A DNA stretch of 64,000 nt. It comes from a virus. Its lineage: Duplodnaviria; Caudoviricetes. A model generated the notes under the pieces. That model searched no databases and was not told the DNA's origin. It saw nothing but the letters and a program-made list of their open reading frames with translations. Position numbers and translations under genes: made by a program. The stretch spans positions 90,403-154,402 of the IMG/VR virus record IMGVR_UViG_3300028591_000101; one strand, 5' to 3'. Position 1 is the stretch's first letter. Each line of letters starts with the position of its first letter. Below, one piece after another: positions 25,974-63,974 of the stretch.

Positions 25974-25989
25974 TGGCACGATTTTTGTA
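25974..25989 (+). promoter_or_regulatory. sigma54-type -24/-12 box
   Basis: TGGCACG-attt-TTGTA upstream of ORF 26034. Confidence 0.6.
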
Positions 25990-26033
25990 TTATATAGTTA
26001 CGAAAATTATGTTTAACTTTTAAAATTAGAGAC

Positions 26034-26189
26034 ATGGAAAAGAATAAGACTCTTGCGAACATTTTTACGGCACTTCCAATCGCTGTTTGTTTCGTTGGGC
26101 TTTTGGCCTTCACCCCGACCGGTTTTGTCCTTGGCGGAATCGGTGTCCTCGGTGTTATCGGTCAGGTCATGCTTAACAAGAAGCAATAA
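26034..26189 (+). CDS. 51-aa membrane protein (not in ORF track)
   Basis: MEKNKTLANIFTALPIAVCFVGLLAFTPTGFVLGGIGVLGVIGQVMLNKKQ between promoter box and terminator. Confidence 0.65.
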   Translation: MEKNKTLANIFTALPIAVCFVGLLAFTPTGFVLGGIGVLGVIGQVMLNKKQ

Positions 26190-26191
26190 AA

Positions 26192-26216
26192 AAAGGTGGT
26201 CACAATGACCACCTTT
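26192..26216. terminator. Bidirectional terminator
   Basis: AAAGGTGGTCA-caa-TGACCACCTTT between convergent genes. Confidence 0.75.
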
Positions 26217-26239
26217 AATTTTTTGTTTTTTCGGGACTA

Positions 26240-26914
26240 TTAGTTATCTTCCTCGTTAACGAAGTTATTCCAGTTCTGTTCAGCCTTGGCAAAGTTATTT
26301 CTAGCCTGTCCGAGGGTATTGTTTGCTTGAGCAATCCTATTGTTACCTCTTGCTGCACTGTTCGCGGAAGCGGTCGCATTCCTTTGTTGTGCATTTGCAG
26401 TGGCCTGTGCATTACGCCGTGCAAGAGCTGCATTTCTGGCCGCAATCTGAGCCTGGTCAGCATCGTTAGCCTTTGCTACTCTTTCTCTCGGTGTTACAGC
26501 CGGGGTTTTTCCATTAAACCAATCGCCTAAAGAGTCTTTAGCTGCACCAATAGTAGCTCCAATTTGTCTTGCTCTTCCTTGAACAACATCACCCGCGTTT
26601 CTTACTTTTGTACCAGCGGTTCTGGCCGCATTTCCAATCCTAGCACCAGCACTCCTCATAGCATTTCCGGCCCCTGTGGCAAGTTGGTCGGCTGTATTTG
26701 CTATTGTCCCACCAGCGGATTGTAGACCACCTTTTGCGGCCTTTAATCCGCCACGTACTGCATTTGTTACTGCATTTCCACCAGCTTTAAGCAAGTTTTT
26801 CCCAGCCTGCTTAAAGTCACCCCAAGCGCCTTCATCCATTTCATTAAGTACATTTTCAACACTTTCACGAATGATTTGTCTAAGTTCGCTTTCGCTTATT
26901 TGAATTTTAGCCAT
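26240..26914 (-). CDS. Ala/Gly-rich protein with ISESELRQIIRESV leader (probable head-internal protein)
   Basis: 224 aa; N-terminal motif shared with several genes at 39.5-43.2 kb. Confidence 0.6.
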   Translation of the reverse strand: MAKIQISESELRQIIRESVENVLNEMDEGAWGDFKQAGKNLLKAGGNAVTNAVRGGLKAAKGGLQSAGGTIANTADQLATGAGNAMRSAGARIGNAARTAGTKVRNAGDVVQGRARQIGATIGAAKDSLGDWFNGKTPAVTPRERVAKANDADQAQIAARNAALARRNAQATANAQQRNATASANSAARGNNRIAQANNTLGQARNNFAKAEQNWNNFVNEEDN

Positions 26915-26974
26915 TTTTGTTTTCTGTTTATAATTGCAATTATTTAACTATAAATAGTATCTGTCTATTGAAAA

Positions 26975-27214
26975 TCAACGCCCCATTCTCTTGTTTTCAA
27001 TCTTTTTAATGAGGTCTCCAACCGTCTTGACCTGCATAATTTCGTCATCACTAATAACCAGACCGAATTCGTCCTCAATACCCATAACTATCTCAGCCAT
27101 ATCAAGCGAATCAGTTCCAAGGTCGTTTACGAATTCCTGGTTTTCTTTAATTTCTAACTTATCATAACCAAGCTTCTCGCTCAGTAAGTTGATAACTCGT
27201 TCTTTTACTTCCAT
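26975..27214 (-). CDS. acpP: Acyl carrier protein
   Basis: 79 aa acidic protein with DLGTDSLD phosphopantetheine motif and IEDEFG...VKTVGD. Confidence 0.9.
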   Translation of the reverse strand: MEVKERVINLLSEKLGYDKLEIKENQEFVNDLGTDSLDMAEIVMGIEDEFGLVISDDEIMQVKTVGDLIKKIENKRMGR

Positions 27215-27347
27215 AATAGTTTTATTTATAGACATAAATAGCTTGTTTTGACTTTTAAACTGTTTCTGGCTATATTGTAAGAAAGGAATACTATTTGCTG
27301 GTGGATTTTTTAAAAGATAACACTATTTATATGTAAATTGACAAGAT

Positions 27348-28499
27348 ATGAAAAAACTCACAACAGAACAGTTTATAGAGAAAGCAAGGCAAGTACATGG
27401 GGATAAATACGATTATTCGCAATCCGTTTATGTAAATACCCGAACGCCAATTTGTATTATTTGCCCAGAGCACGGTGAATTCAAACAAACTCCGAACATG
27501 CATTTGCAAGGTAACGGTTGTCCGAAATGTTTTAACGAAAAAAGAGGAAATACAACAAGGATGACAACGGAAGAGTTTGTTAAACGCGCAAGAGAAATAC
27601 ATGGTGATAAATATGATTATTCAAAAACCATATATAAGAATATAATGACTAAGGTGCGTATTATTTGTCCAGAACATGGTGAATTCAAACAAACGCCTAA
27701 CGACCATTTAAACGGGAAGAAAAATTGTCCTAAATGCGCACACATGAGTTATAAAAAAACAACGGAAGAGTTTATTGAAGAAGCGAAAAAAATACATGGC
27801 GATAAATATGATTATTCAAAATCAGTATATTCCGGAAAAGACAAAAAGATTATTATTGTTTGTCCCGAACACGGAGAATTTAAACAAACGCCACATTCTC
27901 ATCTACAAGGTAAAGGTTGTCCTAAATGCGCAAATAAATTAAACGGATTAAAAAAGCGCCTAACAAATGAAGAATTTATTTCTAAAGCGAACACGTTACA
28001 TGGGAATAAATACGATTATTCAAAAGTAGAATATAAAACAACAGATACACCGGTTTGCATTATCTGTCCAGAGCATGGGGAATTCTGGCAAACACCCCAC
28101 AACCATATAGGGCAAAAACAAGGATGCCCGAAATGTTCTAAAAGTCATATGGAGAAAGAAATATCACAACTTTTAACAGAGAACAACATTCGTTTTGAAG
28201 AACAAAAAAAATTTCCGTGGTTGAAATACAAAAAACCACTATCGCTTGACTTTTACCTGCCAGAATATGATATTGTAATAGAATGTCAGGGTGAGCAACA
28301 TTTCGTTAAAATGAGATACATAACTGAAACTGACGAAAAGTTTGAAAGAGTAAAGGAAAGGGATAAGATTAAAAAAGAGTTATGCGAAAAACACGGACTA
28401 AGGGTTTTGTACTATTCAACAGCTTTTAAGTCTGACTTTTTGATTAGTGATAAAAATAAATTATTAAAAATTATTAAAAATGAAGGGTATTTGCCTTAG
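27348..28499 (+). CDS. Zinc-repeat PD-(D/E)xK endonuclease (homing-endonuclease-like)
   Basis: Four HGDKYDYS...CPEHGEF.QTP..H..G..CPKC repeats; C-terminal LDFYLP...IECQGEQH. Confidence 0.75.
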   Translation: MKKLTTEQFIEKARQVHGDKYDYSQSVYVNTRTPICIICPEHGEFKQTPNMHLQGNGCPKCFNEKRGNTTRMTTEEFVKRAREIHGDKYDYSKTIYKNIMTKVRIICPEHGEFKQTPNDHLNGKKNCPKCAHMSYKKTTEEFIEEAKKIHGDKYDYSKSVYSGKDKKIIIVCPEHGEFKQTPHSHLQGKGCPKCANKLNGLKKRLTNEEFISKANTLHGNKYDYSKVEYKTTDTPVCIICPEHGEFWQTPHNHIGQKQGCPKCSKSHMEKEISQLLTENNIRFEEQKKFPWLKYKKPLSLDFYLPEYDIVIECQGEQHFVKMRYITETDEKFERVKERDKIKKELCEKHGLRVLYYSTAFKSDFLISDKNKLLKIIKNEGYLP

Positions 28500-29385
28500 T
28501 GGAGGAGCTGGCTCCAGGTTGTGGCCCATTACAAAAAGCACATCAAAACAATTATTACCATTATATAACAAGCCGCTATTGTATTTTCCATTATCAACTT
28601 TAATGCTTGGCGGAATACGAGATATTTTAATTATAACCACACCTTACGATGCAAAAGCATTCCAGGCGTTGCTTGGAGACGGTAGCTCGTTCGGAATAAA
28701 TATAACCTATGCGCAACAGCCTTCTCCCGATGGAATAGCCCAAGCTTTTATCATCGCGGAAAAATGTGGATTTTTATCAAATGATGAACCATGCGCGTTG
28801 ATACTCGGTGATAATGTGTTTCATGGCCCCGGTTTTACAGAGAAACTGACCAGAGCAAAAAATATGGCGGAAGAAGGTATTGCAACGATTTATGGTTGCA
28901 TTGTAAAAGACCCCCAGAGATATGGCATTGCAGAAGTTGATAAAAGAACAGGAGAACTACTTTCAATTGAAGAGAAGCCGAAGAACCCGAAATCAAATCT
29001 TTGTGTGACTGGTTTATATTTCTATCCGGCCGGTGTTGTTGAAGTGGCCAGGAACGTAAAGCCATCAGCAAGGGGAGAACTGGAAATCACGTCGGTCAAT
29101 CAAGCATACCTTGAAATGGGGAAATTGAGGCTTGAAAATCTCGGTCTTGGATTCGCCTGGCTTGACACTGGTACCTTTGACAGTCTTTCCGAAGCATCAA
29201 ATTATGTGGAGACCATAGAGAAGCGAACAGGTCAGCAGATTGCGTGCCTTGAAGAGATTGCCTACAATCATCATTGGATTAACAAGCTTCAGTTGCTGAA
29301 ATCCGCAAATGAGATGATTAAGAATGAGTATGGGCAATATCTCTTGCGGCTTTCCAAAAATGATGACGAAAAACCGGTGAATTAA
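28480..29385 (+). CDS. rfbA: Glucose-1-phosphate thymidylyltransferase
   Basis: GICLSGGAGSRLWPIT..SKQLLP, LILGDN, EEKP, SARGELEIT, WLDTGT motifs. Confidence 0.95.
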   Translation: MKGICLSGGAGSRLWPITKSTSKQLLPLYNKPLLYFPLSTLMLGGIRDILIITTPYDAKAFQALLGDGSSFGINITYAQQPSPDGIAQAFIIAEKCGFLSNDEPCALILGDNVFHGPGFTEKLTRAKNMAEEGIATIYGCIVKDPQRYGIAEVDKRTGELLSIEEKPKNPKSNLCVTGLYFYPAGVVEVARNVKPSARGELEITSVNQAYLEMGKLRLENLGLGFAWLDTGTFDSLSEASNYVETIEKRTGQQIACLEEIAYNHHWINKLQLLKSANEMIKNEYGQYLLRLSKNDDEKPVN

Positions 29386-30108
29386 ATGGCACAGGTGGTT
29401 TGTAAGTCTTCCGATGGTATATATTATATGCTATGGGGAGGCGCACAGCACGATATATGGACAAAATCAGTACATGACAGTCATCTTGACCTGATAAACG
29501 GAACATATGACGGGTTCAGACTACTTGACATGAGGCAGTTCCGGTTTGACTATAATAAGAAAAGCCTTCCGAATATTCACCATGTTGCTTTGGCGTCTTA
29601 CGTTCGTATCGTTTATCCTTATCTTGCTGACATATTGAAGTTTCCGTATAAAAGAAGTGATTTCAATCTTCACAAATATGAAGAAGATAACATGATTTGT
29701 TCGTTCCTGTGGCCGAAGAATGATATGAAATGGACTGTTAGTATAAATCAGGAAGTTACCGCTGAACATGAGGGTTTTGAATGTCTGACAAATATTGAAA
29801 AGAAATATCCTGGTGACAAAGGGTCTGCATATCATAGAATATTTTGTGCATCACACTGTTCTTGCGACATAATTAATGAAAGCATTCCTGATGGACAAAG
29901 CATATTCATAAGCGGAGATAGCTATATGATACCTGTTATCCCGATTTTGGCTTGTTATTACCATGAGGTTGTTTCATTGGATAATCGTTTTGAAGGAATT
30001 GGAATAAGTAACGTCCCGTATTATGATGGCAAGGTGTTTGATAAGGTGCTGATAGCTTGTTCGGAATCAAATCCACCGTTAAAATATCTTGGATGGAATT
30101 TGGCATGA
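29386..30108 (+). CDS. Hypothetical protein, possible SGNH/AlgJ-like C-terminal part
   Basis: IFISGDSY motif; translationally coupled to rfbA. Confidence 0.5.
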   Translation: MAQVVCKSSDGIYYMLWGGAQHDIWTKSVHDSHLDLINGTYDGFRLLDMRQFRFDYNKKSLPNIHHVALASYVRIVYPYLADILKFPYKRSDFNLHKYEEDNMICSFLWPKNDMKWTVSINQEVTAEHEGFECLTNIEKKYPGDKGSAYHRIFCASHCSCDIINESIPDGQSIFISGDSYMIPVIPILACYYHEVVSLDNRFEGIGISNVPYYDGKVFDKVLIACSESNPPLKYLGWNLA

Positions 30109-30140
30109 CTTTTTAATACCAACATAAACAAGCATAACAA

Positions 30141-30164: not shown

Positions 30165-30168
30165 AATT

Positions 30169-36575: not shown

Positions 36576-37286
36576 ATGTTAAAAAAGCAAAAGATTGGAA
36601 CGGAGCACGATAAGAGTGTAAATACCTATTTTAATGAGGTTGCAACTTATAAGCCCCTTTCAAGAGACGAGGAGCTTGAGTTGTGGCGGAAATATAAATA
36701 CAATGGGGATATGGGGGCAAGGGATAAGCTCATTTCCTCAAATCTTAAGTTCGTGGCCAGTATTGCAAAGCAGTACCAAGGTCGCGGACTTTCGTATGCT
36801 GACCTGATTGCAGAGGGTAACATCGGTCTCATGAAAGCACTGGACAAGTTTGACGGGGAGAGAGGCTACAAGATAATCAGTTACTCGGTATGGTGGATAA
36901 AGCAGACGATACTTGAAGCCCTGGCAAAGAGAAACACCTCTGACGACGAAGACCTACCGTGCGATTACGAGAAGCCTCTGGCAACCGATGACGATGATTA
37001 TCGGGCAGAGATGGGAGACGATACCTTCCTTAATGACGGGTTGGAAAGAAATAAGGAAATGGAGCAGTCAGAAGCCATCAAATTTCTTATGGACTATCTG
37101 AATCAGCGGGAAAAGAACATAATTACGAAATATTATGGTCTTGACGGCAATAAGCCGAAGACGCTGGAAGAAATCGGGATGGAGTATGGACTTACGAAGG
37201 AAAGAATTCGACAGATTAAGAATACGTCATTCAAAAAGATGAGAAGTGTTGCACTGGCTACTGGTATGACAGCCAATGTATTTTAA
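36576..37286 (+). CDS. Phage sigma-70-family RNA polymerase sigma factor
   Basis: Region 1.2 (PLSRDEE), region 2 (SNLKFVASIAKQYQGRGL..DLIAEGNIGL, YSVWWIKQ), region 4 (TLEEIG..TKERIRQI). Confidence 0.9.
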   Translation: MLKKQKIGTEHDKSVNTYFNEVATYKPLSRDEELELWRKYKYNGDMGARDKLISSNLKFVASIAKQYQGRGLSYADLIAEGNIGLMKALDKFDGERGYKIISYSVWWIKQTILEALAKRNTSDDEDLPCDYEKPLATDDDDYRAEMGDDTFLNDGLERNKEMEQSEAIKFLMDYLNQREKNIITKYYGLDGNKPKTLEEIGMEYGLTKERIRQIKNTSFKKMRSVALATGMTANVF

Positions 37287-38396: not shown

Positions 38397-39349
38397 ACTT
38401 TTATTATTTCATTAAGTAAAGTGGCGGTATCAAAAAAGGTATCGCTATTTTTTTGTACATTTTCGTGGGTATAATATAACAGTTTAATCCCGTGTTCTTC
38501 ACATAGTTTCTTTTTAATGTTATCCCTGTTTTTTACAACCGAAAAAAACTCTTCAGGACTGATTTCCCCGCCAAAACTGGTCGGAAAATAATGTTGCACG
38601 CCTTGACATTCAATCGCAATTTTTTGGTCTGGCAAATAAAAGTCAAGTGAAAGATTGGCTATATATTTTAGCCACTCAAAGGTTTTTTGGTATTCAAAGT
38701 TTATTCTGGCTTCGGTTAATATTTTTAACATCTCTGACTCAAGATGGCTTTGGCTACATTTTTTACAACCCCACCCATGTAAATGGTTCCCTGGCCGTTG
38801 CCAAAATTCGCCATGAACCGGGCAAATTATGCAAACCTTTTCTTTATCATTTATATATTCTGTTTTTGAATAGTCATATTTATTGCCATGCACGTTTCTT
38901 GCTGCACGAATAAACTCCTCGGTAGTTTTAGCTTGTCTGCGCCCATTTTCTTCGTTCGCACATAATCTACACCCCAACCCGTTCATGTGATTGTTTGCTT
39001 TCTGTTCAAAAACACCATGAACCGGACAGATGATTTTTACTTTGTGTTGGGAATCGACATAATCAACCAATGAGTAGTCGTACTTATGATTATGTTTTTC
39101 GTTCGCCACACGTATAAAATCTTCCTTTGTATATTTGTATTTTTTTGATACGGTTTCTCTACCACATTTATAACATCCAAACCCATGCATATGATTGTTT
39201 GGTGTTTGTTCAAAAACACCGTGAATTGGGCATATAATTTTTACTTTAATGTCTTTCCCATGATATTCAACCAGGGAATAATCATATTTGTCGCCATGTA
39301 TAGCTCTACTCCTTTCAATGAATTCTTCTTTTGTAAGTTTTTTAGGCAT
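38393..39349 (-). CDS. Zinc-repeat PD-(D/E)xK endonuclease, paralogue of 27348-28499
   Basis: Three CPxHGxFxQ repeats, LDFYLP...IECQGVQH; antisense insertion. Confidence 0.75.
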   Translation of the reverse strand: MPKKLTKEEFIERSRAIHGDKYDYSLVEYHGKDIKVKIICPIHGVFEQTPNNHMHGFGCYKCGRETVSKKYKYTKEDFIRVANEKHNHKYDYSLVDYVDSQHKVKIICPVHGVFEQKANNHMNGLGCRLCANEENGRRQAKTTEEFIRAARNVHGNKYDYSKTEYINDKEKVCIICPVHGEFWQRPGNHLHGWGCKKCSQSHLESEMLKILTEARINFEYQKTFEWLKYIANLSLDFYLPDQKIAIECQGVQHYFPTSFGGEISPEEFFSVVKNRDNIKKKLCEEHGIKLLYYTHENVQKNSDTFFDTATLLNEIIKV

Positions 39350-43192: not shown

Positions 43193-43211
43193 GAGGTAAA
43201 AATATAAAACT

Positions 43212-43240
43212 AAACCCGGATTTAAGTCCGGGTTTTTTGT
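43212..43240 (+). terminator. Intrinsic terminator
   Basis: AAACCCGGA-tttaag-TCCGGGTTTTTT. Confidence 0.75.
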
Positions 43241-43289
43241 TTTTTACGGACTTTTTTAGTATATTGATAGTGTAAAATATACTTGAGAT

Positions 43290-44841: not shown

Positions 44842-46944
44842 CTATTCGTACTCACCGCAGTCAATCTTGACGAGTGAAAGGTCAAGCTGGACTTTCTGTC
44901 CATTTTCACCATTGTCAACAACCTTAATACCGGCGTTGCAATGTGCGGCTTGCCTGTCGCTATCAGTAAGGACAGCAAATTCAGCAGCTTGGATAGCCTT
45001 ATCGTTAAGATTTTCGGTAATCTGTTCAAGGAGATTCTTGATACCCCAGAGTGAAGTCTCAGCACTTGTTGATGCTGAAGTTCCAAGGAGTTCAGCATCG
45101 GCAGTCTCACGAGCCGCTATTTCAGTAGCGATATCGTCATTAATGAAATCAATGTTCTGCTTGAGCTCGCTGTCGTTAATGGTGATGGCTGTTGCACCCT
45201 CACCATCGTTCGTAACTTCGAGGGTAACGAAATTCTCAACAGAAGCGGCATCCTTTTCAACGGAGGTAGCATTCAGCTGGTCACTGATTTCCTTAAGGGC
45301 CTGGTCAATGAGCTTGATTTCGTTTCTTACGCTTGTTGCGGCGGAAGCGAAATTGCTGGTCGGGTCGGCACTGAATGAACCGTCCTCGTTAAGACCAACG
45401 GATTCCTCAACCTTATCAAGTTCCTTTTCAGAGGCGATGTCGTCGGTAGAAACAACGACCTGAGTAAGCTCGGTGTTCTCCTGGACAACCTCAACAGTAA
45501 CGTGACCATCCTGTGAAGCACCGGTTACATCAGCGTCAATGTTACCGGCAAGTTCAGCAACGGCGTAGTCAATAGCGGCCTGGATGTTGGCAATCTTGAC
45601 ACCATCCTCGCTAACGGAAAGAACGTCAGCTGTCTCGGCACTACTGATGCGGACCTTTTCGCTGTCCTCGTCAACCTTAACCTTAACGATATGGTTGTCA
45701 ACTTCAAGACCATCCTTGAATTCGCTCTCCTCAAGGAAGTCGTTAACATCAATGGCAACAAGCTCGTATGAACCGTCTTCCTTATGGTAGATGAGGTCAA
45801 GGGCAGTGTCGCCGGAGCCAGAAACAAGACTTTCAGGGTCATCCGGGTCAGAAAGAACGTCGTCAATGTGGCCAAGGAATGCCCTGTAAAGTGAGCTGTC
45901 CTTGTAGACCTTGACAGTATCACCGAGCTGGCGACCGTTGTGGTCAATGAGAGCAAACTCTTCCTTTACGTTAACACTGCTTGGAGTGATAGCGGAAAGT
46001 TTGAGGTCGGCGACGAGTTCGTTATTGTCATTAAGGACGATGGTAGCCTCGTCACGATTGACCTTGACAAGTGTTGCTTCATCACTACCAGGAGTGCCAG
46101 GAGTTACGACGATTGAACCGTCCTCGCTCTCAATCTTGTTAGCCTCAATGTTTTCAAGGATGTATTCAAGGGCCTCGTCAAGGGTATCGCCAGAATCATT
46201 GATTTCGACGAATTCGGCGCTGATGTTTCCAGCCTCGGCGCTAACAAGACCATCCTCCTGGGTCACATTGACAATCGGTTTGCCCTCCTGGGTTACACCG
46301 GTGAAATCAAGAGCACCAAGAACGTCCTGTGTTGCGGCGGAGAGTTCTTCCACCTTCTCAACGACCTTTTCAATTTCGTTGACGGTAGCGGATGAGAATT
46401 CCTTTACGACACCGGAGAGGGCTTCAACCTTGTCATTAACGACGGTGTAAGCTGACTCAATGGCCTCGCTGATACCTTCTGACTTGATGTAATAGTTTAC
46501 GGCAGAAGAGGATGCATCAATCACGCTTCTGAGCTTAAGGTATTCTTCGTCGTGTCCGAAAGCATCATCAATGAAAAGCTTCGTGCTAGCAGCTGCAGTA
46601 CCAGCGGTCATTTCCTCGTAGGTCTGCTCAATAGCCTGCCATACGCTTAAACCGCTGTTCCAAGCTTCAGGGTCATGAGGAAGGCCAATTTCTTCGTTGA
46701 GAGAGTCAATCTGCATCTCAACAAGGTCAAGGGCATTCTCAATCTTGGTATCAATGGCTTTTTCAGTGATAAATTTGGCAACGGTATCTGCACTTTCGCT
46801 ATCGGCGACGGTTTCAACATACAATGCAGCATCTTCAACATTATTATGCTGTACACCAATTTCACCGAGGTTCAACGCACCAACAGGAACTTTCTCCTGA
46901 CTGGAATGCGGATTTACAAGTATTTGTCTGTTATCTCTTTTCAT
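44842..46944 (-). CDS. Tail-fibre-like coiled-coil protein
   Basis: N-terminal LNLGEIGV and C-terminal IDCGEY motifs; acidic, coiled-coil stretches. Confidence 0.6.
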   Translation of the reverse strand: MKRDNRQILVNPHSSQEKVPVGALNLGEIGVQHNNVEDAALYVETVADSESADTVAKFITEKAIDTKIENALDLVEMQIDSLNEEIGLPHDPEAWNSGLSVWQAIEQTYEEMTAGTAAASTKLFIDDAFGHDEEYLKLRSVIDASSSAVNYYIKSEGISEAIESAYTVVNDKVEALSGVVKEFSSATVNEIEKVVEKVEELSAATQDVLGALDFTGVTQEGKPIVNVTQEDGLVSAEAGNISAEFVEINDSGDTLDEALEYILENIEANKIESEDGSIVVTPGTPGSDEATLVKVNRDEATIVLNDNNELVADLKLSAITPSSVNVKEEFALIDHNGRQLGDTVKVYKDSSLYRAFLGHIDDVLSDPDDPESLVSGSGDTALDLIYHKEDGSYELVAIDVNDFLEESEFKDGLEVDNHIVKVKVDEDSEKVRISSAETADVLSVSEDGVKIANIQAAIDYAVAELAGNIDADVTGASQDGHVTVEVVQENTELTQVVVSTDDIASEKELDKVEESVGLNEDGSFSADPTSNFASAATSVRNEIKLIDQALKEISDQLNATSVEKDAASVENFVTLEVTNDGEGATAITINDSELKQNIDFINDDIATEIAARETADAELLGTSASTSAETSLWGIKNLLEQITENLNDKAIQAAEFAVLTDSDRQAAHCNAGIKVVDNGENGQKVQLDLSLVKIDCGEYE

Positions 46945-55425: not shown

Positions 55426-55464
55426 TGAAACCCACCCATTTACGAGGTGGGCTTCAATTTTTTT
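55426..55464 (+). terminator. Intrinsic terminator (near-duplicate at 55901-55930)
   Basis: GAAACCCACC...GGTGGGCTTC plus T tract. Confidence 0.65.
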
Positions 55465-55481
55465 GCCGGGCTTATATAGTT

Positions 55482-55497
55482 TGGCACGGTTTTTGTA
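55482..55497 (+). promoter_or_regulatory. sigma54-type -24/-12 box
   Basis: TGGCACG-gttt-TTGTA. Confidence 0.65.
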
Positions 55498-55525: not shown

Positions 55526-55894
55526 ATGAATATGAACGATGAAAAGGTGATACTCCCGATGGAGGAGTACAAGAGGCTGAAAGAGGCCGAAGAATGTCTG
55601 AAACTGGCCAGGGAGGAACTTAAGAAAGACTCCCAGGAACGAGGCTATTATGTTGAGCTTACCGTGACGGCTCGTGACACTTTTTATGACCATTGGTACA
55701 AAACCCACTATATTCAGTTAATTAAGCCGGTGAAGGTCGTAACTAAGGATGAGGTGATTGAGCTCCTTAATGGAAAACTTGAAAACGCGCACGAAAATGA
55801 GGAGGCTATGGCAAAGGAGGTCAAGGAACTGGAAGCTGAAAATCAAAGGCTGAAGAGCAGAAATATCTTCAAGCGGATTTTCAATATTTCCTAA
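55526..55894 (+). CDS. Coiled-coil hypothetical protein
   Basis: 122 aa between promoter box and terminator. Confidence 0.65.
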   Translation: MNMNDEKVILPMEEYKRLKEAEECLKLAREELKKDSQERGYYVELTVTARDTFYDHWYKTHYIQLIKPVKVVTKDEVIELLNGKLENAHENEEAMAKEVKELEAENQRLKSRNIFKRIFNIS

Positions 55895-56188: not shown

Positions 56189-56310
56189 AAAGTAAAAAGC
56201 ACACATAGGTTTCTAACCACAACATACATCTTAACTTCACCTCCAATCTAAAGGCTCCGGCAAGGAAAAACCCAAGATTCGGAGGTTTTTTAATACCCAC
56301 AACTCAAGTT

Positions 56311-56326
56311 TGGCACGATATTTGTA
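56311..56326 (+). promoter_or_regulatory. sigma54-type -24/-12 box
   Basis: TGGCACG-atat-TTGTA. Confidence 0.65.
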
Positions 56327-56339: not shown

Positions 56340-56477
56340 ATGAAGATAATTGACTATCCTCCGTTGATTGATGCGGCACCAGTCACGGAAAAGAAAAAAG
56401 AAGAAATTAAGCATATGCAACGCTTTGTAAGTAGCATAAGAAAGAAATATAACATAACTTTTTTGCTGAAGGAATAA
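56340..56477 (+). CDS. 45-aa hypothetical protein (not in ORF track)
   Basis: MKIIDYPPLIDAAPVTEKKK...FLLKE exactly between two promoter boxes. Confidence 0.55.
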   Translation: MKIIDYPPLIDAAPVTEKKKEEIKHMQRFVSSIRKKYNITFLLKE

Positions 56478-56481
56478 AGTT

Positions 56482-56497
56482 TGGCACGATATTTGTA
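56482..56497 (+). promoter_or_regulatory. sigma54-type -24/-12 box
   Basis: TGGCACG-atat-TTGTA. Confidence 0.65.
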
Positions 56498-56523: not shown

Positions 56524-56766
56524 ATGGAGACATTGACCCAAATCGTAAAGGGAACGGCACAGCTGGACTGTATCAGGACCGGTGGAGTTGCAGAGTACAT
56601 CATCACCTCCTGCAACGGAAAGAAATACCTCGTTGAGATTGACCTTTCAGACAAGGTTGATTGCGGAGAGAGCGCTTCCTTCAAGCCCTACTACGAAAAG
56701 GCAATTATCCTTATGAGATGGATACGGAGGGCGATGGAGAAGGGAGATTTGATTGACCTTAATTAA
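56524..56766 (+). CDS. Hypothetical protein
   Basis: 80 aa; KAIILMRWIRRA motif. Confidence 0.65.
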   Translation: METLTQIVKGTAQLDCIRTGGVAEYIITSCNGKKYLVEIDLSDKVDCGESASFKPYYEKAIILMRWIRRAMEKGDLIDLN

Positions 56767-56767
56767 T

Positions 56768-57073
56768 ATGGACAAGGATTTTAACAAAAGGTTCCTTCTT
56801 GACAGGGACGAGACGGGAAGGTTCATCGTTAAGTCACAGAAGACCGGGAAGACCTACTACGTGGAACCCATTGACGGAGACGAGAGGACAGTGTGGGGAG
56901 ATTACAATCCAGTGACGAAGGATTTTGAAACCTCCAGTTACGGAAAGTACAAGGGAAGCATCAAGCCGTCCGAGTCCATGATAACCGAGGAGAACGGGTT
57001 TGAAAAGATACATGAGCTTGGTCCTGGGGTATCACCGTTGGACTACATTGAAAAACTTGAAGAAAATTTTTAG
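56768..57073 (+). CDS. Hypothetical protein
   Basis: ETGRFIVKS.KTGKTYYVEPI...WGD.NP...GSI phage motif. Confidence 0.65.
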   Translation: MDKDFNKRFLLDRDETGRFIVKSQKTGKTYYVEPIDGDERTVWGDYNPVTKDFETSSYGKYKGSIKPSESMITEENGFEKIHELGPGVSPLDYIEKLEENF

Positions 57074-57075
57074 TT

Positions 57076-57091
57076 TGGCACGGTATTTGTA
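57076..57091 (+). promoter_or_regulatory. sigma54-type -24/-12 box
   Basis: TGGCACG-gtat-TTGTA. Confidence 0.65.
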
Positions 57092-57122: not shown

Positions 57123-57374
57123 ATGATTGACTTTTTGCTTATTTTGCTTTGCATAGTCCTTGACCTCGGTTCTGGCTTAATGATGTATTCCATCTTCAAT
57201 GGAGATAGCAGTGACGGAACTAAACCATTGTTCAAGCTTGAGAAGTTTAAGAGACCATACAGGGTGCTGATTAGGTTGTCGTTCATAGTCTTTTGGTGGT
57301 TTTACGTCCTGGCTATGGTTTTGGTTAGCCTCTACGATGTAACAAAAGGTACATTTAAGTCAATACTTGAATAG
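57123..57374 (+). CDS. Two-TM membrane protein
   Basis: Paralogue of 57425-57673. Confidence 0.65.
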   Translation: MIDFLLILLCIVLDLGSGLMMYSIFNGDSSDGTKPLFKLEKFKRPYRVLIRLSFIVFWWFYVLAMVLVSLYDVTKGTFKSILE

Positions 57375-57376
57375 TT

Positions 57377-57392
57377 TGGCACGGTTTTTGTT
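57377..57392 (+). promoter_or_regulatory. sigma54-type -24/-12 box
   Basis: TGGCACG-gttt-TTGTT. Confidence 0.6.
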
Positions 57393-57424: not shown

Positions 57425-57673
57425 ATGAGTAGTTTTTGGATATGGGCGGTGCTCTTTGTCAGTTATACACTTTTAGGTATTTGCATATTTTCGCTAACCC
57501 TTAATGAAGATGGCAAACCGGGCATTTTACCCTTCGTTGGAAAATGGAAGAGACCTTTCAGGGTAATGTTTAATTTGTCCTTCGTGTATTTTTGGCCGGT
57601 ATATCTGGCGGTTGGTTTTGCAATCGGTGCAGGAAGCGCCCTGTGGGAAGCGGTACGTGGGATTTTTGCGTAG
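57425..57673 (+). CDS. Two-TM membrane protein
   Basis: Shares DG.KP...K[FW]KRP[YF]RV..LSF..FW with 57123-57374. Confidence 0.65.
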   Translation: MSSFWIWAVLFVSYTLLGICIFSLTLNEDGKPGILPFVGKWKRPFRVMFNLSFVYFWPVYLAVGFAIGAGSALWEAVRGIFA

Positions 57674-57675
57674 TT

Positions 57676-57691
57676 TGGCACGGTTTTTGTA
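57676..57691 (+). promoter_or_regulatory. sigma54-type -24/-12 box in front of RNA array
   Basis: TGGCACG-gttt-TTGTA, 16 nt before first tRNA. Confidence 0.65.
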
Positions 57692-59152: not shown

Positions 59153-59971
59153 ATGGAAAAAGAAAGAGTTGAAAACTTATTGATTGAATGTAATTCGTTG
59201 AGTGAAGTTCTTAAGAAACTTGGATTGAAAGTTAATGGCGGAACACGCAGGACACTAAAAAATTTCATGTATAAAAATGGATTAACGTTTGAAAGAGGAA
59301 AATTAACAAGGGAAGAATATGATAGAAACCCGAAAATTTGCCCAGTATGCGAAAAAAAAATAGATTTTGAGCATCGAGAAAATACCTATTGCTCAAGTTC
59401 GTGTGCAGCAAAAGTTAACAATGTTTTGTATCCGAAAAGGAAAAAATCCGAAAAGAAGCAAAAAAGCAAAAACAGCGCGGAAAAACATTTAATTGTTAAC
59501 GAGAAAACAGTTTCAAAAAAGAGACATTATCCAAAGACAAGGAAATATGAGGAGAACGAATTATTTTGCGTGAATTGTGGAAAAAAACTTACCGGAAACC
59601 AGAAAAAGTTTTGTTCAGAAAGATGCAAACGAAAATACTATTCATACCAAAATTATCAAACAAACCATTCACGCAAGAATGATGAACTTGGAACAATAAA
59701 AAAGTACGAGTATATAATGAGACTTGGGGGTAAATGCTCTGTTTGTGGTTATGATAAAAATTTGTCGGCGCTTGTTTTTCATCATACGAGGGACAAGGAA
59801 TTTACATTGACCGCCAGAGCTTTTAGCCGATTGACCGAGGAAGAGATACAAAAAGAACTGGAAAAATGCGTTTTGTTGTGTCAAAATTGTCATCACGAAT
59901 TGCATCACCCAGAGTTGAATAAAGAAAAGATTGAAACAATTATAGATATGGAAAGCGGGGCAAAACGATAA
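59153..59971 (+). CDS. HNH homing-endonuclease-like protein with zinc fingers
   Basis: CSVCGY...ALVFHH...ELEKCVLLCQNCHHELH. Confidence 0.8.
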   Translation: MEKERVENLLIECNSLSEVLKKLGLKVNGGTRRTLKNFMYKNGLTFERGKLTREEYDRNPKICPVCEKKIDFEHRENTYCSSSCAAKVNNVLYPKRKKSEKKQKSKNSAEKHLIVNEKTVSKKRHYPKTRKYEENELFCVNCGKKLTGNQKKFCSERCKRKYYSYQNYQTNHSRKNDELGTIKKYEYIMRLGGKCSVCGYDKNLSALVFHHTRDKEFTLTARAFSRLTEEEIQKELEKCVLLCQNCHHELHHPELNKEKIETIIDMESGAKR

Positions 59972-60126
59972 ACTGAAAGAATACCTTTGGAATGAGTGGA
60001 GGTATAACGTACATAAGAGATTTCTTAAGTACTTTGACGAGTGGTACGAGAATTTGACTGATAATCAAGTACTTTACTTCACTGCCTACATGAAAGGATT
60101 AAAAAGTCCATTCCAAGGTTAAAGTT

Positions 60127-60142
60127 TGGCACGGTTTTTGAT
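60127..60142 (+). promoter_or_regulatory. sigma54-type -24/-12 box
   Basis: TGGCACG-gttt-TTGAT. Confidence 0.55.
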
Positions 60143-60154
60143 AATACAGGCAAT

Positions 60155-60391
60155 ATGACAGACAATGAACAAAAAATAGAAGCAATTTATGTTGCAACCT
60201 TGATGATTAGGAAGATGATTGAAAGGGGAGAATGTGAATTGTTTTTTGAAGACGGAACAAAGGTTAAGCCGGAAGAGTATTTCTGGGACGAATCACAGTT
60301 CCCCATTGAAGTTGTCATTAACGGAAAAAGAACGGAAGTTAAAAAAGAAGAAATAGACATGAAAGAGTTTAAACGAAAATACAATCTTTAG
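60155..60391 (+). CDS. Hypothetical protein
   Basis: 78 aa directly after promoter box. Confidence 0.6.
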   Translation: MTDNEQKIEAIYVATLMIRKMIERGECELFFEDGTKVKPEEYFWDESQFPIEVVINGKRTEVKKEEIDMKEFKRKYNL

Positions 60392-60476
60392 CCCTCCAAG
60401 ATACGAGGGCTAAGAAAGAAAATGGAGCCTGCCGGTTACAGGTAATAAATTAAGCTGGCAAATAGGTTCTTGGAAA

Positions 60477-60551
60477 GCCCTTGTAGCTGAATTGGTTAAA
60501 GCTCCACCCTTTTAAGGTGCGTGATTGTGGGTTCGAGTCCCACCGGGGGCA
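60477..60551 (+). tRNA. tRNA-Lys(UUU)
   Basis: Loop ctTTTaa. Confidence 0.85.
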
Positions 60552-60558
60552 CAAATAT

Positions 60559-60635
60559 GGTCTTGTGGCAGAATGGTTGATGCACCTGCCTCTTAAGCAG
60601 CGACGATGTGGGTTCGAATCCCACCGGGACCACCA
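60559..60635 (+). tRNA. tRNA-Lys(CUU)
   Basis: Loop ctCTTaa; encoded CCA. Confidence 0.85.
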
Positions 60636-60653
60636 AAGTTGTTTGAAATATTT

Positions 60654-60728
60654 CGGGACATCATCTAAACGGTGTTAGGATACTACTCTGATACGGTAGC
60701 AATGAAAGTTCGAATCTTTCTGTCCCGA
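60654..60728 (+). tRNA. tRNA-Ile(GAU)
   Basis: CTACT-ctGATac-GGTAG. Confidence 0.75.
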
Positions 60729-60747
60729 CAAGTTATTTGAAATACAT

Positions 60748-60837
60748 GGGAGAGTATCGTCGGCGGTCTGTAAAACCGTTCCCTTTAATAGTGACGTACT
60801 GGCTTAGGGTAAGTGGGTTCGAATCCCTCCTCTCCCA
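60748..60837 (+). ncRNA. D-arm-less tRNA-Tyr(GUA)-like RNA with enlarged variable arm
   Basis: GGGAGAG/CTCTCCC-A; GCGGT-ctGTAaa-ACCGT; only 8 nt between acceptor and anticodon stems. Confidence 0.65.
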
Positions 60838-60842
60838 CAAAC

Positions 60843-60914
60843 GGGCATTTGGTCCAATGGTTAGGATACGTGACTGTCTATCATGTGGTAGGGGTTCGAT
60901 TCCCCTATTGCCCG
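60843..60914 (+). tRNA. tRNA-Asp(GUC)
   Basis: Loop ctGTCta; G73. Confidence 0.85.
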
Positions 60915-60935
60915 CAAGTTCATTGAAAATTAAAA

Positions 60936-61195
60936 AATCTTGACTTTTCCCACGGGCACTGGAGCTCGGTCCATACGTAGGTTTAGGGAATGACACAGGA
61001 TGACAAAGAGTGCTACCAAGTATAAAATTGCCGCGATGCATGCTCGTGTTAAATGGTAGACAGGAACAACGGTAGTGCGGTGCCTTAATATCCTTTAAAG
61101 ATACTGTCGGTTCGAAACGGCAGCGAGGTGGCGAAAACGGACGCAATCCGCCTTGAGAGGTGCAAATCTAAGGTAAGCCTATCCTAGTCAAGATT
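60936..61195 (+). ncRNA. ~260-nt structured ncRNA candidate
   Basis: 10-bp AATCTTGACT/AGTCAAGATT closing stem; GC-richer than spacers; no credible ORF. Confidence 0.55.
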
Positions 61196-61209
61196 AGTGT
61201 TATTGGATT

Positions 61210-61384
61210 GACCTTGTAGCTCAGTTGGTAGAGCACGACACTTTATAAGGGGTGGTTCACCGTAACGAACCAAACCGTTAGAATTCGAGCAGTGGAAAAC
61301 ACTTGGGAAACAGGTGAGGCACGGGTGCAAGTCCCGTTAACGGTTCTAATGTCGGGGTCGCGGGTTCGAGCCCCGCCGGGGTCA
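61210..61384 (+). tRNA. tRNA-Lys(UUU)-like gene interrupted in the anticodon by ~102-nt insert
   Basis: Canonical 5' half to CGACA-CTTT and 3' half TAA-TGTCG...GGTTCGAGCCC...GGTCA. Confidence 0.7.
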
Positions 61385-61406
61385 CAAGTTCATTGGAATA
61401 TAAATT

Positions 61407-61540
61407 AAAGGTACAACAAGACTACGGACAAGCATAAAGACCGGTCTGAGTCCGTTTCCAAAGGATATAGAACTATCCATAAACTTTGGCTCCGTTTTCG
61501 CGAGCGACCAAACTGGTGATAGGAAATGTTGAGTGCCTTT
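61407..61540 (+). ncRNA. Multi-hairpin ncRNA candidate
   Basis: AAAGGTAC/GTGCCTTT and CAACA/TGTTG closing stems, four internal hairpins. Confidence 0.5.
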
Positions 61541-61547
61541 TTAATAT

Positions 61548-61624
61548 GCTGGGTTAATCTGCTAGTTGGTCGAGGCGGGGTGCCTTTCAAGCATCCGACT
61601 CCGGTTCGAATCCGGAACCCAGTA
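61548..61624 (+). tRNA. tRNA-Glu(UUC), atypical D-arm
   Basis: GGTGC-ctTTCaa-GCATC. Confidence 0.7.
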
Positions 61625-61641
61625 CAAGTTCATTGAAATAT

Positions 61642-61714
61642 GCTCCTATCTGCTAATGGTTCAGGCGACCGGATTCTCAGTCCGGGGATTCGGGTTCGAC
61701 TCCCGATAGGAGTA
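61642..61714 (+). tRNA. tRNA-Glu(CUC)
   Basis: CCGGA-ttCTCag-TCCGG. Confidence 0.85.
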
Positions 61715-61721
61715 CAAAAAT

Positions 61722-61795
61722 GGGCTCGCATGTACCAAGGCTGGCGATGTTCCCTTGCAAGGAACGTGTGGAGAGTTCGATTCTCTTCGGGTCCA
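61722..61795 (+). tRNA. tRNA-Ala(UGC)
   Basis: Loop ctTGCaa; G3:U70; weak D-stem. Confidence 0.75.
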
Positions 61796-61796
61796 C

Positions 61797-61869
61797 AGCG
61801 GTATCGTACAAAGGTTGAGTATGGGTGGCTTTGACCCACCAGATATCGGTTCGACTCCGGTTACCGCCA
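61797..61869 (+). tRNA. tRNA-Gln(UUG)
   Basis: GGTGG-ctTTGac-CCACC; 1:72 mismatch. Confidence 0.8.
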
Positions 61870-61873
61870 CAAT

Positions 61874-61945
61874 GCTCTCTTAGTATAAAGGCTATTATAG
61901 CTGTTTCGTAATCAGCAGATATTGGTTCGATTCCGATAGGGAGCT
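61874..61945 (+). tRNA. tRNA-Thr(CGU)
   Basis: Loop ttCGTaa. Confidence 0.85.
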
Positions 61946-61956
61946 CAGAAATATAA

Positions 61957-62037
61957 CGGGAAGTACGCTAATTGGCCTTTTTGTAAGCGGCCTGGTCAGG
62001 AGCCAGGGAGATGCAGGTTCGAATCCTGTCTTCCCGA
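61957..62037 (+). tRNA. tRNA-Pro(AGG), C33/A34, enlarged D-loop
   Basis: CCTGG-tcAGGag-CCAGG; C1:G72, A73. Confidence 0.7.
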
Positions 62038-62044
62038 CAAATAT

Positions 62045-62128
62045 GTTTGGTTGGCCGAGTGGCTTAAGGCAGCACACTGTTAATGTGCCGTGTGAAGAAC
62101 ACCGTAGGTTCGAATCCTGCACCAAACG
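62045..62128 (+). tRNA. tRNA with Asn(GUU) anticodon and long variable arm
   Basis: GCACA-ctGTTaa-TGTGC then GTGT-gaaga-ACAC arm; G73. Confidence 0.75.
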
Positions 62129-62135
62129 CAACAAT

Positions 62136-62209
62136 GGGGATGTGGCGCAACGGTTTAGCGCAATTGACTGTTAATCAAGAGGTTGTGGGTTCGAATCCCT
62201 CCATCCCCG
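62136..62209 (+). tRNA. tRNA-Asn(GUU)
   Basis: Loop ctGTTaa; G73. Confidence 0.9.
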
Positions 62210-62222
62210 CAAAATTTAAGAT

Positions 62223-62305
62223 GGGTAGGTATGTGAAGTGGTCAACCACATTTGACTGTAAATCAAACGCCTCAGGCTTCGGGGGTTCGAATCCCTCCCT
62301 GCCCA
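62223..62305 (+). tRNA. tRNA-Tyr(GUA)
   Basis: TTTGA-ctGTAaa-TCAAA with variable arm. Confidence 0.9.
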
Positions 62306-62308
62306 CTA

Positions 62309-62495
62309 GGAAGCACTGAAAGGAGATTGCAAGTCCCTGCAGGTGTAACTTGCTGAGGGGTTGAATAACAGAGTGGTCGCTCCCTCTGTTAACCTCAAAA
62401 GGAGCGGTTTTTAATCGGAGACATTTTCCCGCTTCGGCACTATAACCACGTGGGCCCAAACAAAGATAAATGAATCAAGTTTTTCTGTGTCTTCC
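62309..62495 (+). ncRNA. ~190-nt pseudoknotted ncRNA candidate
   Basis: GGAAGCAC/GTGTCTTCC ends; TAACAGAG/CTCTGTTA hairpin whose loop CGCTCC matches downstream GGAGCG. Confidence 0.5.
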
Positions 62496-62510
62496 AAACA
62501 GTTTTATTAT

Positions 62511-62585
62511 GCTCCTATGGTGTTTAACGGCTGAGCACGGGACCCTTGTAAAGTTCAAGTACTGGTTCGAATCCGGTTAGGAGCT
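62511..62585 (+). tRNA. tRNA-Thr(UGU)
   Basis: Loop ctTGTaa. Confidence 0.8.
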
Positions 62586-62591
62586 CAAAAT

Positions 62592-62669
62592 ACCGGAGAC
62601 GTTGGTTAAAATCCAACCTTGAAGCCCGTATGCGTATCGGGGAGTAGCTTAGTCAGGCAGAGCGCCGGT
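62592..62669 (+). ncRNA. Circularly permuted tRNA-like RNA (T-arm, closed acceptor, D-arm)
   Basis: ACCGG-agac-GTTGG-ttaaaat-CCAAC...CGGGGAG-TA-GCTT-agtcaggc-AGAGC-G-CCGGT. Confidence 0.65.
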
Positions 62670-62674
62670 TTTAT

Positions 62675-62749
62675 GCCCTCGTAGCCCAACTGGAAGAGGC
62701 TTTACGTTCAGACCGTATTTATGTGTGGGTTCGAATCCCACTGGGGGTA
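62675..62749 (+). tRNA. tRNA-Leu(CAG), short variable loop
   Basis: Loop ttCAGac; A73. Confidence 0.75.
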
Positions 62750-62751
62750 CA

Positions 62752-62886
62752 AACAGGTAGAATCCACGTTAGTTCGGGATTCTTTAAATCGGAGGAAGGT
62801 GCTAGGCTAAACAAAGCCCTGACAGACGTCGCAGAACGCTATTTAGCTGAAAGCCTGAAAGTAACGGATACGCCGATGAGCCTGTT
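62752..62886 (+). ncRNA. Structured ncRNA candidate
   Basis: AACAGG/CCTGTT ends; AGAATCC/GGATTCT; ATCGG/CCGAT. Confidence 0.45.
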
Positions 62887-62890
62887 AAAT

Positions 62891-62966
62891 GCCTCCGTAG
62901 CCCAACTGGAAGATGGCGTAGGACTTAAAATCCTTTCAGTGCTGGGTTCGAATCCCGCCGGAGGTA
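62891..62966 (+). tRNA. tRNA-Leu(UAA), short variable loop
   Basis: Loop ctTAAaa; A73. Confidence 0.8.
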
Positions 62967-62975
62967 CAAAAATAT

Positions 62976-63053
62976 GCCCTTGTAGCCCAACTGGAAGATG
63001 GCAATAGGCCAAGGACCTATACAGTGTGAGTTCGAATCTCACCAAGGGTACCA
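62976..63053 (+). tRNA. tRNA-Leu(AAG), C33/A34, short variable loop
   Basis: ATAGG-ccAAGga-CCTAT; encoded CCA. Confidence 0.75.
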
Positions 63054-63155
63054 AGCTCTTTGAAATAAAAATTTTATCAAAAAATGGTAGTATAAAATAC
63101 TATAACGCCTCTACTTTTTGTGGGTACGAAACTATTTATATGTAAAAGTATAAAT

Positions 63156-63875
63156 ATGAAACGTTACAATCACACAGAAAATGATTATCGAGAAGCAGCT
63201 AAAAATTCCCACAGTATAGCTGGAATGTGCAAATATTTAGGCCGTTCGCCATACGGGGCCGGATATTATATGATGCACAAAAAAATAGAAGAATATGGGA
63301 TAGACATTTCTCATTTTACCGGACAAGGTTGGAATTTAGATGGAAAAAATTTAAATAAAGGAGTAAAACGCTCAGATGAGGATGTGTTTTGTGAAAATTC
63401 AACATATAACACAAGTCAGTTACGAAAAAGGTTAATTTCTGCCGGGTATAAGATTGAAATGTGCGAAAAATGCGGTCGCATCGAGTGGGAAGGTCAAAAG
63501 ATACCATTAGAAACGCACCACATAAATGGAATACATAACGATAATAGACTTGAAAATTTAATGCTGCTCTGTCCAAATTGTCACGCATTAACTGATAACT
63601 ACTGTTCAAAAAATAAAAAGAAAAAAAAGAAAGTAAAAGTAATGAGCCCGGTCGGTGTTGAAAAGGTTTGTCCGATATGCGGTAAAAAATTTTTTGCAAA
63701 AAATAGAAATCAAAAATATTGTTCGCAAAAATGTTATCATAGTACAACCAACAAGAGGCCGGAAAGGGACATTTTGGAAAAGTTAGTAACAGAAAACACG
63801 AATACAAAAATAGGAAAAATGTATGGCGTAAGTGAAAGTATGGTTAGAAAATGGAGGAAAATGTACGATATTTGA
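63156..63875 (+). CDS. HNH homing-endonuclease-like protein
   Basis: CEKCG...LETHHINGIHNDNRLENLMLLCPNCH; C-terminal HTH. Confidence 0.85.
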   Translation: MKRYNHTENDYREAAKNSHSIAGMCKYLGRSPYGAGYYMMHKKIEEYGIDISHFTGQGWNLDGKNLNKGVKRSDEDVFCENSTYNTSQLRKRLISAGYKIEMCEKCGRIEWEGQKIPLETHHINGIHNDNRLENLMLLCPNCHALTDNYCSKNKKKKKKVKVMSPVGVEKVCPICGKKFFAKNRNQKYCSQKCYHSTTNKRPERDILEKLVTENTNTKIGKMYGVSESMVRKWRKMYDI

Positions 63876-63877
63876 AT

Positions 63878-63952
63878 GGCCCGGTAGCCCAATCGGAAGA
63901 TGGCAACAGATTCAAGCTCTGTGTAGTGAGGGTTCGAATCCCTCCCGGGCTA
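63878..63952 (+). tRNA. tRNA-Leu(CAA), short variable loop
   Basis: ACAGA-ttCAAgc-TCTGT; A73. Confidence 0.8.
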
Positions 63953-63958
63953 CAAGTT

Positions 63959-63974
63959 TGGCACGATATTTGTA
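63959..63974 (+). promoter_or_regulatory. sigma54-type -24/-12 box
   Basis: TGGCACG-atat-TTGTA. Confidence 0.6.

Follow-up and report, generated by a model that had tools for sequence, protein, structure and literature searches.

We analyzed the final 64 kb of a 154,402-bp IMG/VR viral contig (IMGVR_UViG_3300028591_000101; contig label G000); this whole stretch is referred to as the window. The contig, with a completeness of ~42% by CheckV, is part of a large (jumbo) uncultured rumen/gut phage, and related contigs form a phage group. The subject of the analysis is a short box, AGTT-TGGCACG-N4-TTG, that stands in front of small genes and a tRNA array and resembles the -24/-12 promoters read by the sigma factor RpoN (sigma-54). 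A sequence-only reading of the window had placed nine such boxes at 25974, 55482, 56311, 56482, 57076, 57377, 57676, 60127 and 63959. A search for the exact motif recovered all nine, and their intergenic position, sense orientation and invariant spacing were confirmed for each. The boxes, the first tRNA block and a phage sigma factor gene are listed here with their coordinates in the window.

25970..25989, + strand: box 1, AGTT-TGGCACG-ATTT-TTG-TA, 5' of a 51-aa membrane-like open reading frame (ORF) at 26034-26189
55478..55497, + strand: box 2, 5' of a 122-aa ORF at 55526-55894
56307..56326, + strand: box 3; a 45-aa ORF (56340-56477) begins 15 nt past the TTG, so that the leader would be ~3 nt
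56478..56497, + strand: box 4, 5' of an 80-aa ORF (56524-56766) and a 101-aa ORF (56768-57073)
57072..57091, + strand: box 5, 5' of an 83-aa small membrane protein (57123-57374)
57373..57392, + strand: box 6, 5' of an 82-aa paralogous small membrane protein (57425-57673)
57672..57691, + strand: box 7, candidate tRNA-array promoter; tRNA-Arg(CCU) from 57708
60123..60142, + strand: box 8; a 78-aa ORF (60155-60391) begins 14 nt past the TTG, with a second tRNA block from 60477
63955..63974, + strand: box 9, 1 nt past tRNA-Leu(CAA) (63878-63953); its target is lost at the contig end
57708..59073, + strand: first block of the tRNA array, Arg-CCU to Cys-GCA, downstream of box 7
36576..37286, + strand: sigma1, a sigma-70-family factor of 236 aa with regions 1.2, 2 and 4; no box upstream

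Exact matches to TGGCACG-N4-TTG in the window numbered nine, all on the + strand, compared with 0.11 on average, and never more than 2, in dinucleotide-preserving shuffles. AGTT lay directly 5' of every one of them, and the letters after the TTG were TA in seven boxes, TT in one and AT in one; the -12 position is thus T in eight and A in one, as had been read. Scanning of the whole 154-kb contig with a position weight matrix gave a bimodal score distribution, with ten sites above 28 bits and all remaining sites at or below 14 bits. The tenth box was located outside the window (contig position 26838, minus strand) and had the same orientation as a minus-strand gene. A weaker match within an 1861-aa ORF lacked the flanks and was chance-like. 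Box orientation agreed with the direction of the next gene at all ten contig sites.

All nine window boxes were intergenic, and their targets were a small ORF, tRNA-Arg(CCU) or the contig end. The distance from the TTG was 14-46 nt to the ATG and 18 nt to tRNA-Arg(CCU), in agreement with a predicted transcription start ~2-35 nt before the ATG, or 6 nt before the first tRNA. The GG, the TG and the spacing of one helical turn between them were invariant at all ten contig sites and at 70 sites of the phage family. In this the boxes resemble classical sigma-54 promoters (glnAp2, nifH, pspA; TGGCACG-N4-TTGCW), whose GG and TG(C) are likewise separated by one helical turn and whose start is expected ~12 nt past the -12 element (PMC3844500, PMC4551910).

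Such boxes might also bind the host sigma-54 holoenzyme (E-sigma54) mainly as non-productive docking sites, that is, as a sponge, a roadblock or an insulator between cassettes. E-sigma54 forms stable closed complexes that are silent without an activator (PMC3844500, PMC4551910), two of the boxes overlap terminator-like hairpins, and the searches described below found neither an enhancer nor a phage activator. However, ten of ten sites are co-directional with the downstream gene, their distance to the start codon is narrow (median 36 nt), and at the tRNA array, where no other promoter-like site occurs, one box precedes the first tRNA by 16-18 nt. A sponge or roadblock is disfavoured because orientation and spacing would be unneeded, and we regard this explanation as very unlikely.

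We also examined the box class in related phages. The exact 20-mer was present in 24 stretches of other viral contigs, and whole-record searches of five relatives revealed 39, 19, 11, 11 and 8 boxes in 217, 303, 361, 219 and 147 kb, respectively; the 361-kb relative was rated 100% complete. The relatives include IMG/VR UViG 3300021399_000099 and 3300028833_000001. Base composition was counted over 70 sites from unbiased regions. TTTGGCACG and the TTG were invariant, the four spacer bases varied freely, and the TTG was followed by C (39/70), T (27/70) or A (4/70) and then by A/T; of the 61 unbiased sites that belong to relatives, 39 had C at -12. An invariant TTTGGCACG and TTG around a free N4, with C/T and then A/T behind them, is the pattern of the RpoN consensus, TGGCACG-N4-TTGCW. 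At 84 of 102 sites, an ORF of 40 aa or more started no further than 70 nt downstream, with a median distance of 36 nt. The genes served by the box across the group were nearly all small ORFans: no Pfam family was identified for ten box-driven proteins of the relatives, and PHROG matches of box-driven proteins were limited to families of unknown function, plus one sub-threshold S-adenosylmethionine lyase match.

That last match was to a 237-aa protein of one relative (G002, L051:8952-9665(-)) encoded behind a TGGCATG-variant box. S-adenosylmethionine lyase is a classic early anti-restriction function. In the window, the proteins behind boxes 5 and 6 (83 and 82 aa) are tandem paralogues with two predicted hydrophobic segments each, and their genes have a box each and near-identical leaders (…ACATTAAAATTTTTAGTTATG). 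In another relative, G001, a ~60-nt repeat was present in seven copies between stop codons and boxes (L046/L047; for example, L046:8040-8105, 10190-10255 and 13920-13990). It consists of a stem-loop, in which the loop is conserved (GGTATATTAAA) and the stems differ by compensatory changes, followed by GTTAAGCC, and it has the look of an RNA element or processing site rather than of an enhancer.

Box 7 and its counterpart in G001 restrict where transcription of the tRNA array could begin. Between the TTG and the mature 5' terminus of tRNA-Arg(CCU) there are 18 nt in the window and 16 nt in the G001 orthologue (L031), and no other promoter-like site was present near the first tRNA. If the box is the array promoter, +1 falls within this gap, as a -12 element (~12 nt after the TTG) predicts; with only 16-18 nt available, neither half of the box can be read as a -35 element. 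The predicted start-site geometry at the array is consistent with a -12 element. The orthologue of box 9 in G001 has tRNA-Leu(UAG) 58 nt downstream, and beyond the orthologous array of G001 no tRNA-proximal boxes were found in the relatives.

One correction to the description of the boxes concerns boxes 1 and 2, where the -24 half doubles as the 3' arm of a hairpin. At box 1 this is a 9-bp hairpin (25953-25982; ATCGTGCCA / TGGCACGAT), and at box 2 the overlap is with the 3' arm of a hairpin that resembles a terminator (55464-55486); a T-rich spacer comes next in both. The two sites, 25974 and 55482, are compact terminator/promoter overlaps that share bases, an arrangement that is not general to the class. 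These hairpin arms with their adjacent T-runs would suit an intrinsic terminator, one of several known elements for which the boxes might be mistaken. Another is a Bacteroidota sigmaA promoter (-33 TTTG / -7 TAnnTTTG), since two TTTG strings occur within the window boxes, and a third is a sigma-70 promoter with the TTG as part of its -35 element; a sigma-70-type scan flagged TTGTAA-N17-TAAAAT at 57087 and 57388. However, seven of the nine boxes had no upstream complement and the spacers of the relatives were not T-rich. The TTTG strings were 8 nt apart and not ~23 nt, the two elements of a sigmaA promoter being separated by about 19-21 nt, and TTG, not TTTG, was kept family-wide. A -35 reading would put the start within the tRNA, or past the ATG at 56340 and 60155, and the alignment of 70 sites contained no conserved -10 element at the expected site. 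Any of these identities is most improbable.

The large window proteins contained BACON and BspA-type leucine-rich repeat (LRR) domains, as revealed by a domain search. The closest matches of an RmlA-like auxiliary gene were in rumen/hindgut Prevotellaceae/Bacteroidales genomes (63%), with Firmicutes only slightly lower, and other intergenic regions of the contig carried Bacteroidota sigmaA-like promoters, for example TTTG-N20-TACTTTAG. A Bacteroidales host is likely on these three grounds, which are indirect, and the candidates are rumen Prevotellaceae/Prevotella. Sequences of the form TTTG-N19-21-TAGTAnnTT… were found at divergent junctions, both outside the window (G000 22529-22601, 38935-39078 and 45362-45590) and within it (43193-43289). 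They represent a third promoter class of the contig and support a Bacteroidota host. Megablast of 12 kb identified no near relatives among deposited phages, and tblastn of sigma1 against deposited phages gave a top identity of only 34%.

Five genomes of rumen Prevotellaceae/Prevotella were used as candidate hosts. All five contained rpoN (~500 aa). TGGCACG-N4-TTGC occurred 13 times in these genomes compared with once for the reversed control. Four intergenic host boxes, each preceded by TTT, were located 30-58 nt upstream of dnaK, grpE, htpG and clpB, and an uninterrupted run of 16 bases in the grpE box was the same as in the window boxes. No 8-mer was common to the host chaperone promoters as a possible shared enhancer. 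In one Prevotella sp. (L151; G008:C12:50305-50343), two sigma-54 boxes faced each other head-to-head at a distance of 10 bp, with TGGCACGTCTTTTGC read on either strand, so that they formed a perfect palindrome.

Sigma-54 promoters of chaperone genes have been described in this phylum. In Flavobacterium, typical -24/-12 promoters were mapped before GroES/EL and Lon, and the sigma-54 motif of F. psychrophilum is SM4 (PMC9723704). In Bacteroidia, sigma-54 boxes are predicted before GroEL/ES, DnaK/J, GrpE, Hsp90, ClpB and Lon and are enriched at Bacteroidota chaperone genes; grpE and groES of B. thetaiotaomicron are sigma-54-dependent (PMC12316311). The phage boxes share with these promoters the core TTT-TGGCACG-N4-TTG(C) and the compact layout (PMC9723704, PMC12316311), and with the host chaperone promoters also the AT-rich leaders of 30-58 nt and the lack of an obvious shared enhancer. 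Unlike them, the phage copies head ORFans and tRNAs, are ~100-fold denser and, on this contig, carry T or A in place of C at -12. The proposal of a sigma-54-type class of small genes thus gained from two sides, the class being kept in related phages and matching the host sigma-54 chaperone promoters.

We then considered which protein could read the boxes. Sigma54_DBD (Pfam, E <= 1) had no match in the contig or in the five relatives, including the 100%-complete one, and Sigma54_CBD had none at E <= 1 in the contig, which was the only sequence searched for it. Matches to PF00158 (Sigma54_activat), the family of bacterial enhancer-binding proteins (bEBPs), consisted of a ClpB/Hsp100-like protein and two generic PF00004 AAA proteins, all without the GAFTGA motif, and a six-frame GAFTGA scan of all DNA examined returned nothing usable. 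No multisubunit or T7-like RNA polymerase was detectable in the contig or relatives (PF00623, PF00940); the PF00940 negative is weak because its control also matched nowhere. Since neither the contig nor the complete 361-kb relative has an rpoN or bEBP gene, sigma-54 would be that of the host. The sequence-only reading had left the choice between host and phage sigma-54 open and called for a search of the phage for rpoN and bEBP homologues; the search found none in these two genomes, so the phage half of that claim fell away, and the sequences favour the host half.

The phages do encode two sigma factors of the sigma-70 family, sigma1 in the window and sigma2 (287-295 aa) in relatives (L056:985-1848(-), L057:994-1881(-) and L058:991-1869(-)). 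Both are full-length and RpoD/RpoS-type; over its whole length, sigma2 shares 33-36% identity with ~290-aa sigma factors of the candidate hosts. The context of the sigma2 gene differed among relatives: a box was directly upstream in the 361-kb relative (G003), two TGGCATG variants were present in G002, and a TTGACT-N17-TAGAAT promoter and no box in G001. The upstream boxes suggest a possible cascade in which sigma-54 would act ahead of a phage sigma factor. A second motif, ACTATTTATA (at most one mismatch), occurred 24-31 nt before ~30 start codons on both strands, at structural and large genes, and never coincided with a sigma-54-type box. Examples in the window are upstream of 19885, 25553, 26914(-), 27348, 37333, 39349(-), 39522, 53449(-), 59153 and 63156. 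The reader of this class is probably a phage sigma factor, and sigma1 is a candidate for the non-box promoter classes.

These factors raise an alternative in which the boxes are phage-specific promoters read by host core polymerase with a phage factor, which could be sigma1, sigma2, or an activator or sigma-54 mimic that escaped detection, the likeness to RpoN promoters being coincidental or convergent. Highly uniform promoters are typical for phage-specific factors, the -12 C is missing in all ten local boxes, and many large phage ORFs are without annotation. The box or TGGCATG variants in front of sigma2 (G003 and G002, respectively) would allow autoregulation. The geometry of the box does not fit an RpoD-like factor, however. 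RpoD-like sigma factors require two elements about 16-20 bp apart. The conserved blocks of the box are only 4 nt apart and lie one helical turn from each other within 16 bp, which is incompatible with RpoD-like region-4/region-2 recognition. The boxes agree with the RpoN consensus at 10-12 positions, the spacing being exact, and match the promoters of the host chaperone genes. The phage sigma factors also have other motifs to read, namely ACTATTTATA at ~30 genes and the sigmaA-like promoters, and sigma2 of G001 stands behind TTGACT-N17-TAGAAT and not behind a box. We therefore consider this alternative unlikely.

Temporal gene classes in SPO1 (gp28, gp33/34) and T4 (gp55 late promoters, MotA/AsiA middle promoters) are produced by the host polymerase with a swapped sigma. 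The phages described here resemble them in having a uniform motif per gene class, sigma factors of their own and a second motif, ACTATTTATA, at structural genes; the phage sigma factors together with the second motif make a cascade likely. They differ in that the class motif belongs to a host alternative sigma factor of the unrelated, ATPase-dependent sigma-54 family, and in that no phage-encoded reader of the box was found in the searches above.

All relatives encode a ClpB/Hsp100-like double-AAA+ chaperone of ~850 aa (L039:1075-3456(-), L041, L040), which is unusual for a phage. The gene is split into two ORFs in G002 (L043:709-2637 and L042:1075-2193) and is absent from the available part of the genome from which the window derives. 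Derivation of the boxes from this phage clpB-like gene was considered and rejected, as no sigma-54-type box was present upstream of it.

Among bacterial promoters, only the sigma-54 class stays silent until opened by an ATPase. The candidate hosts encode only one or two true bEBPs each. In the main one (407-417 aa), which has a GSFTGA loop, the AAA+ domain begins at residue 15, an HTH_8 domain lies at the C terminus and a regulatory N-domain is missing, a layout that by sequence is of the PspF type. When the regulatory domain is lacking, a bEBP is constitutively active, and an AAA+ domain by itself, acting from solution, can activate almost any sigma-54 promoter (PMC3844500). Unlike classical sigma-54 promoters, the boxes have no conserved upstream activating sequence (UAS) 80-150 bp upstream, where the preceding gene is usually located, and no linked activator gene, and the -12 C is replaced in the window lineage. 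The upstream repeats of G001 resolved to hairpins, terminators and stem-loops, not an enhancer. No published activator of the Bacteroidota chaperone regulon was found in the literature.

Taken together, these data indicate that the boxes are probably genuine sigma-54-class core promoters that form one temporal or regulatory class and would be read by the host polymerase with host RpoN. The sigma-54 interpretation of the sequence-only reading thus stood as far as boxes in promoter position, a discrete class, its conservation and the host match are concerned; the reader protein is the part still assigned from sequence features. The phage boxes would be copies of the promoter type found before dnaK, grpE, htpG and clpB in its probable Bacteroidales hosts. 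The class would cover small ORFan genes of the host-takeover type and the tRNA array, and in relatives also the gene for a phage RpoD-like sigma factor, which would then drive a later class. E-sigma54 would dock on the box with the GG at -25/-24 and the TG at -14/-13. Proteotoxic or envelope stress of infection may release a host PspF-type bEBP that is normally restrained in trans, and this activator could open the complex without a dedicated enhancer, with transcription starting ~12 nt past the TTG. In the window sub-class, the T-rich spacer and the -12 T may favour strong docking and a weaker -12 'lock'.

Several observations weigh against this interpretation. The -12 C is missing in ten of ten contig boxes (T in eight and A in one within the window, T in the tenth), and the TTGT/TTGA variants were at background in the candidate hosts (10 compared with 9 for the control). 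No 9-mer was common to three or more box upstream regions in G000, G002 or G005. The host bEBP does have a DNA-binding domain, so UAS-free activation is an assumption, although the host chaperone promoters likewise share no obvious UAS. The contig is incomplete and a phage factor could sit in its missing part; the complete relative has no detectable one. In addition, the box reader is proposed on sequence grounds and the host assignment is indirect, and these phages encode two sigma factors of their own whose promoters are tentative assignments.

The base at -12 deserves separate consideration. The C at this position is kept in 96% of bacterial sigma-54 promoters and restrains basal transcription, and low-level bypass transcription was correlated with non-C sites in work with Region-I-deleted sigma-54 (PMC4551910). 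The background level of TTGT/TTGA in the hosts indicates that the -12 variant is phage-specific. In G001, a cluster at 28-57 kb had TTGC in 24 of 29 boxes, with free spacers, and the same phage carried at least 11 exact window-type copies (RTWT spacer, TTG-TA), including those before its tRNA array. Because both types occur in G001, the -12 T marks a sub-class and not the whole class, and the contig of the window may simply miss the genome part with the TTGC cluster. The -12 T noted in the sequence-only reading is therefore real in the local boxes and is not a property of the class, as most of the unbiased sites of the relatives have C. Its suggested effect, a relaxed dependence on the activator, is a possibility that has literature support in principle (PMC4551910).

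A variant of the sigma-54 reading would take this further. The phage group would run the whole gene class, with the tRNA array and the phage sigma factor gene, on the sigma-54 heat-shock circuit of the host, and the window sub-class (T-rich spacer, T for C at -12, no enhancer) would be an 'unlocked' sigma-54 promoter evolved by the phage, firing with little or no dedicated activator, or through an unrecognised phage opener of E-sigma54. T-rich spacers beside the -12 element reportedly strengthen closed complexes at nifH and permit enhancer-independent activation. We consider this 'unlocked' variant quite unlikely; if true, the window sub-class would be the first natural enhancer-independent sigma-54 promoter class. 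The TTGC and TTGT sub-classes within one phage offer a ready-made experiment on the -12 lock of E-sigma54.

Phage biology has essentially ignored sigma-54 promoters, and no published phage with a sigma-54 promoter class was found in the literature. The boxes provide a practical marker of host phylum and gene class for the annotation of uncultured phages. If the reading of the boxes as host sigma-54 promoters is true, a group of large rumen/gut Bacteroidales phages ties its early/accessory programme to the chaperone stress regulon of the host, so that infection stress or the physiological state of the host could be sensed by simple means.

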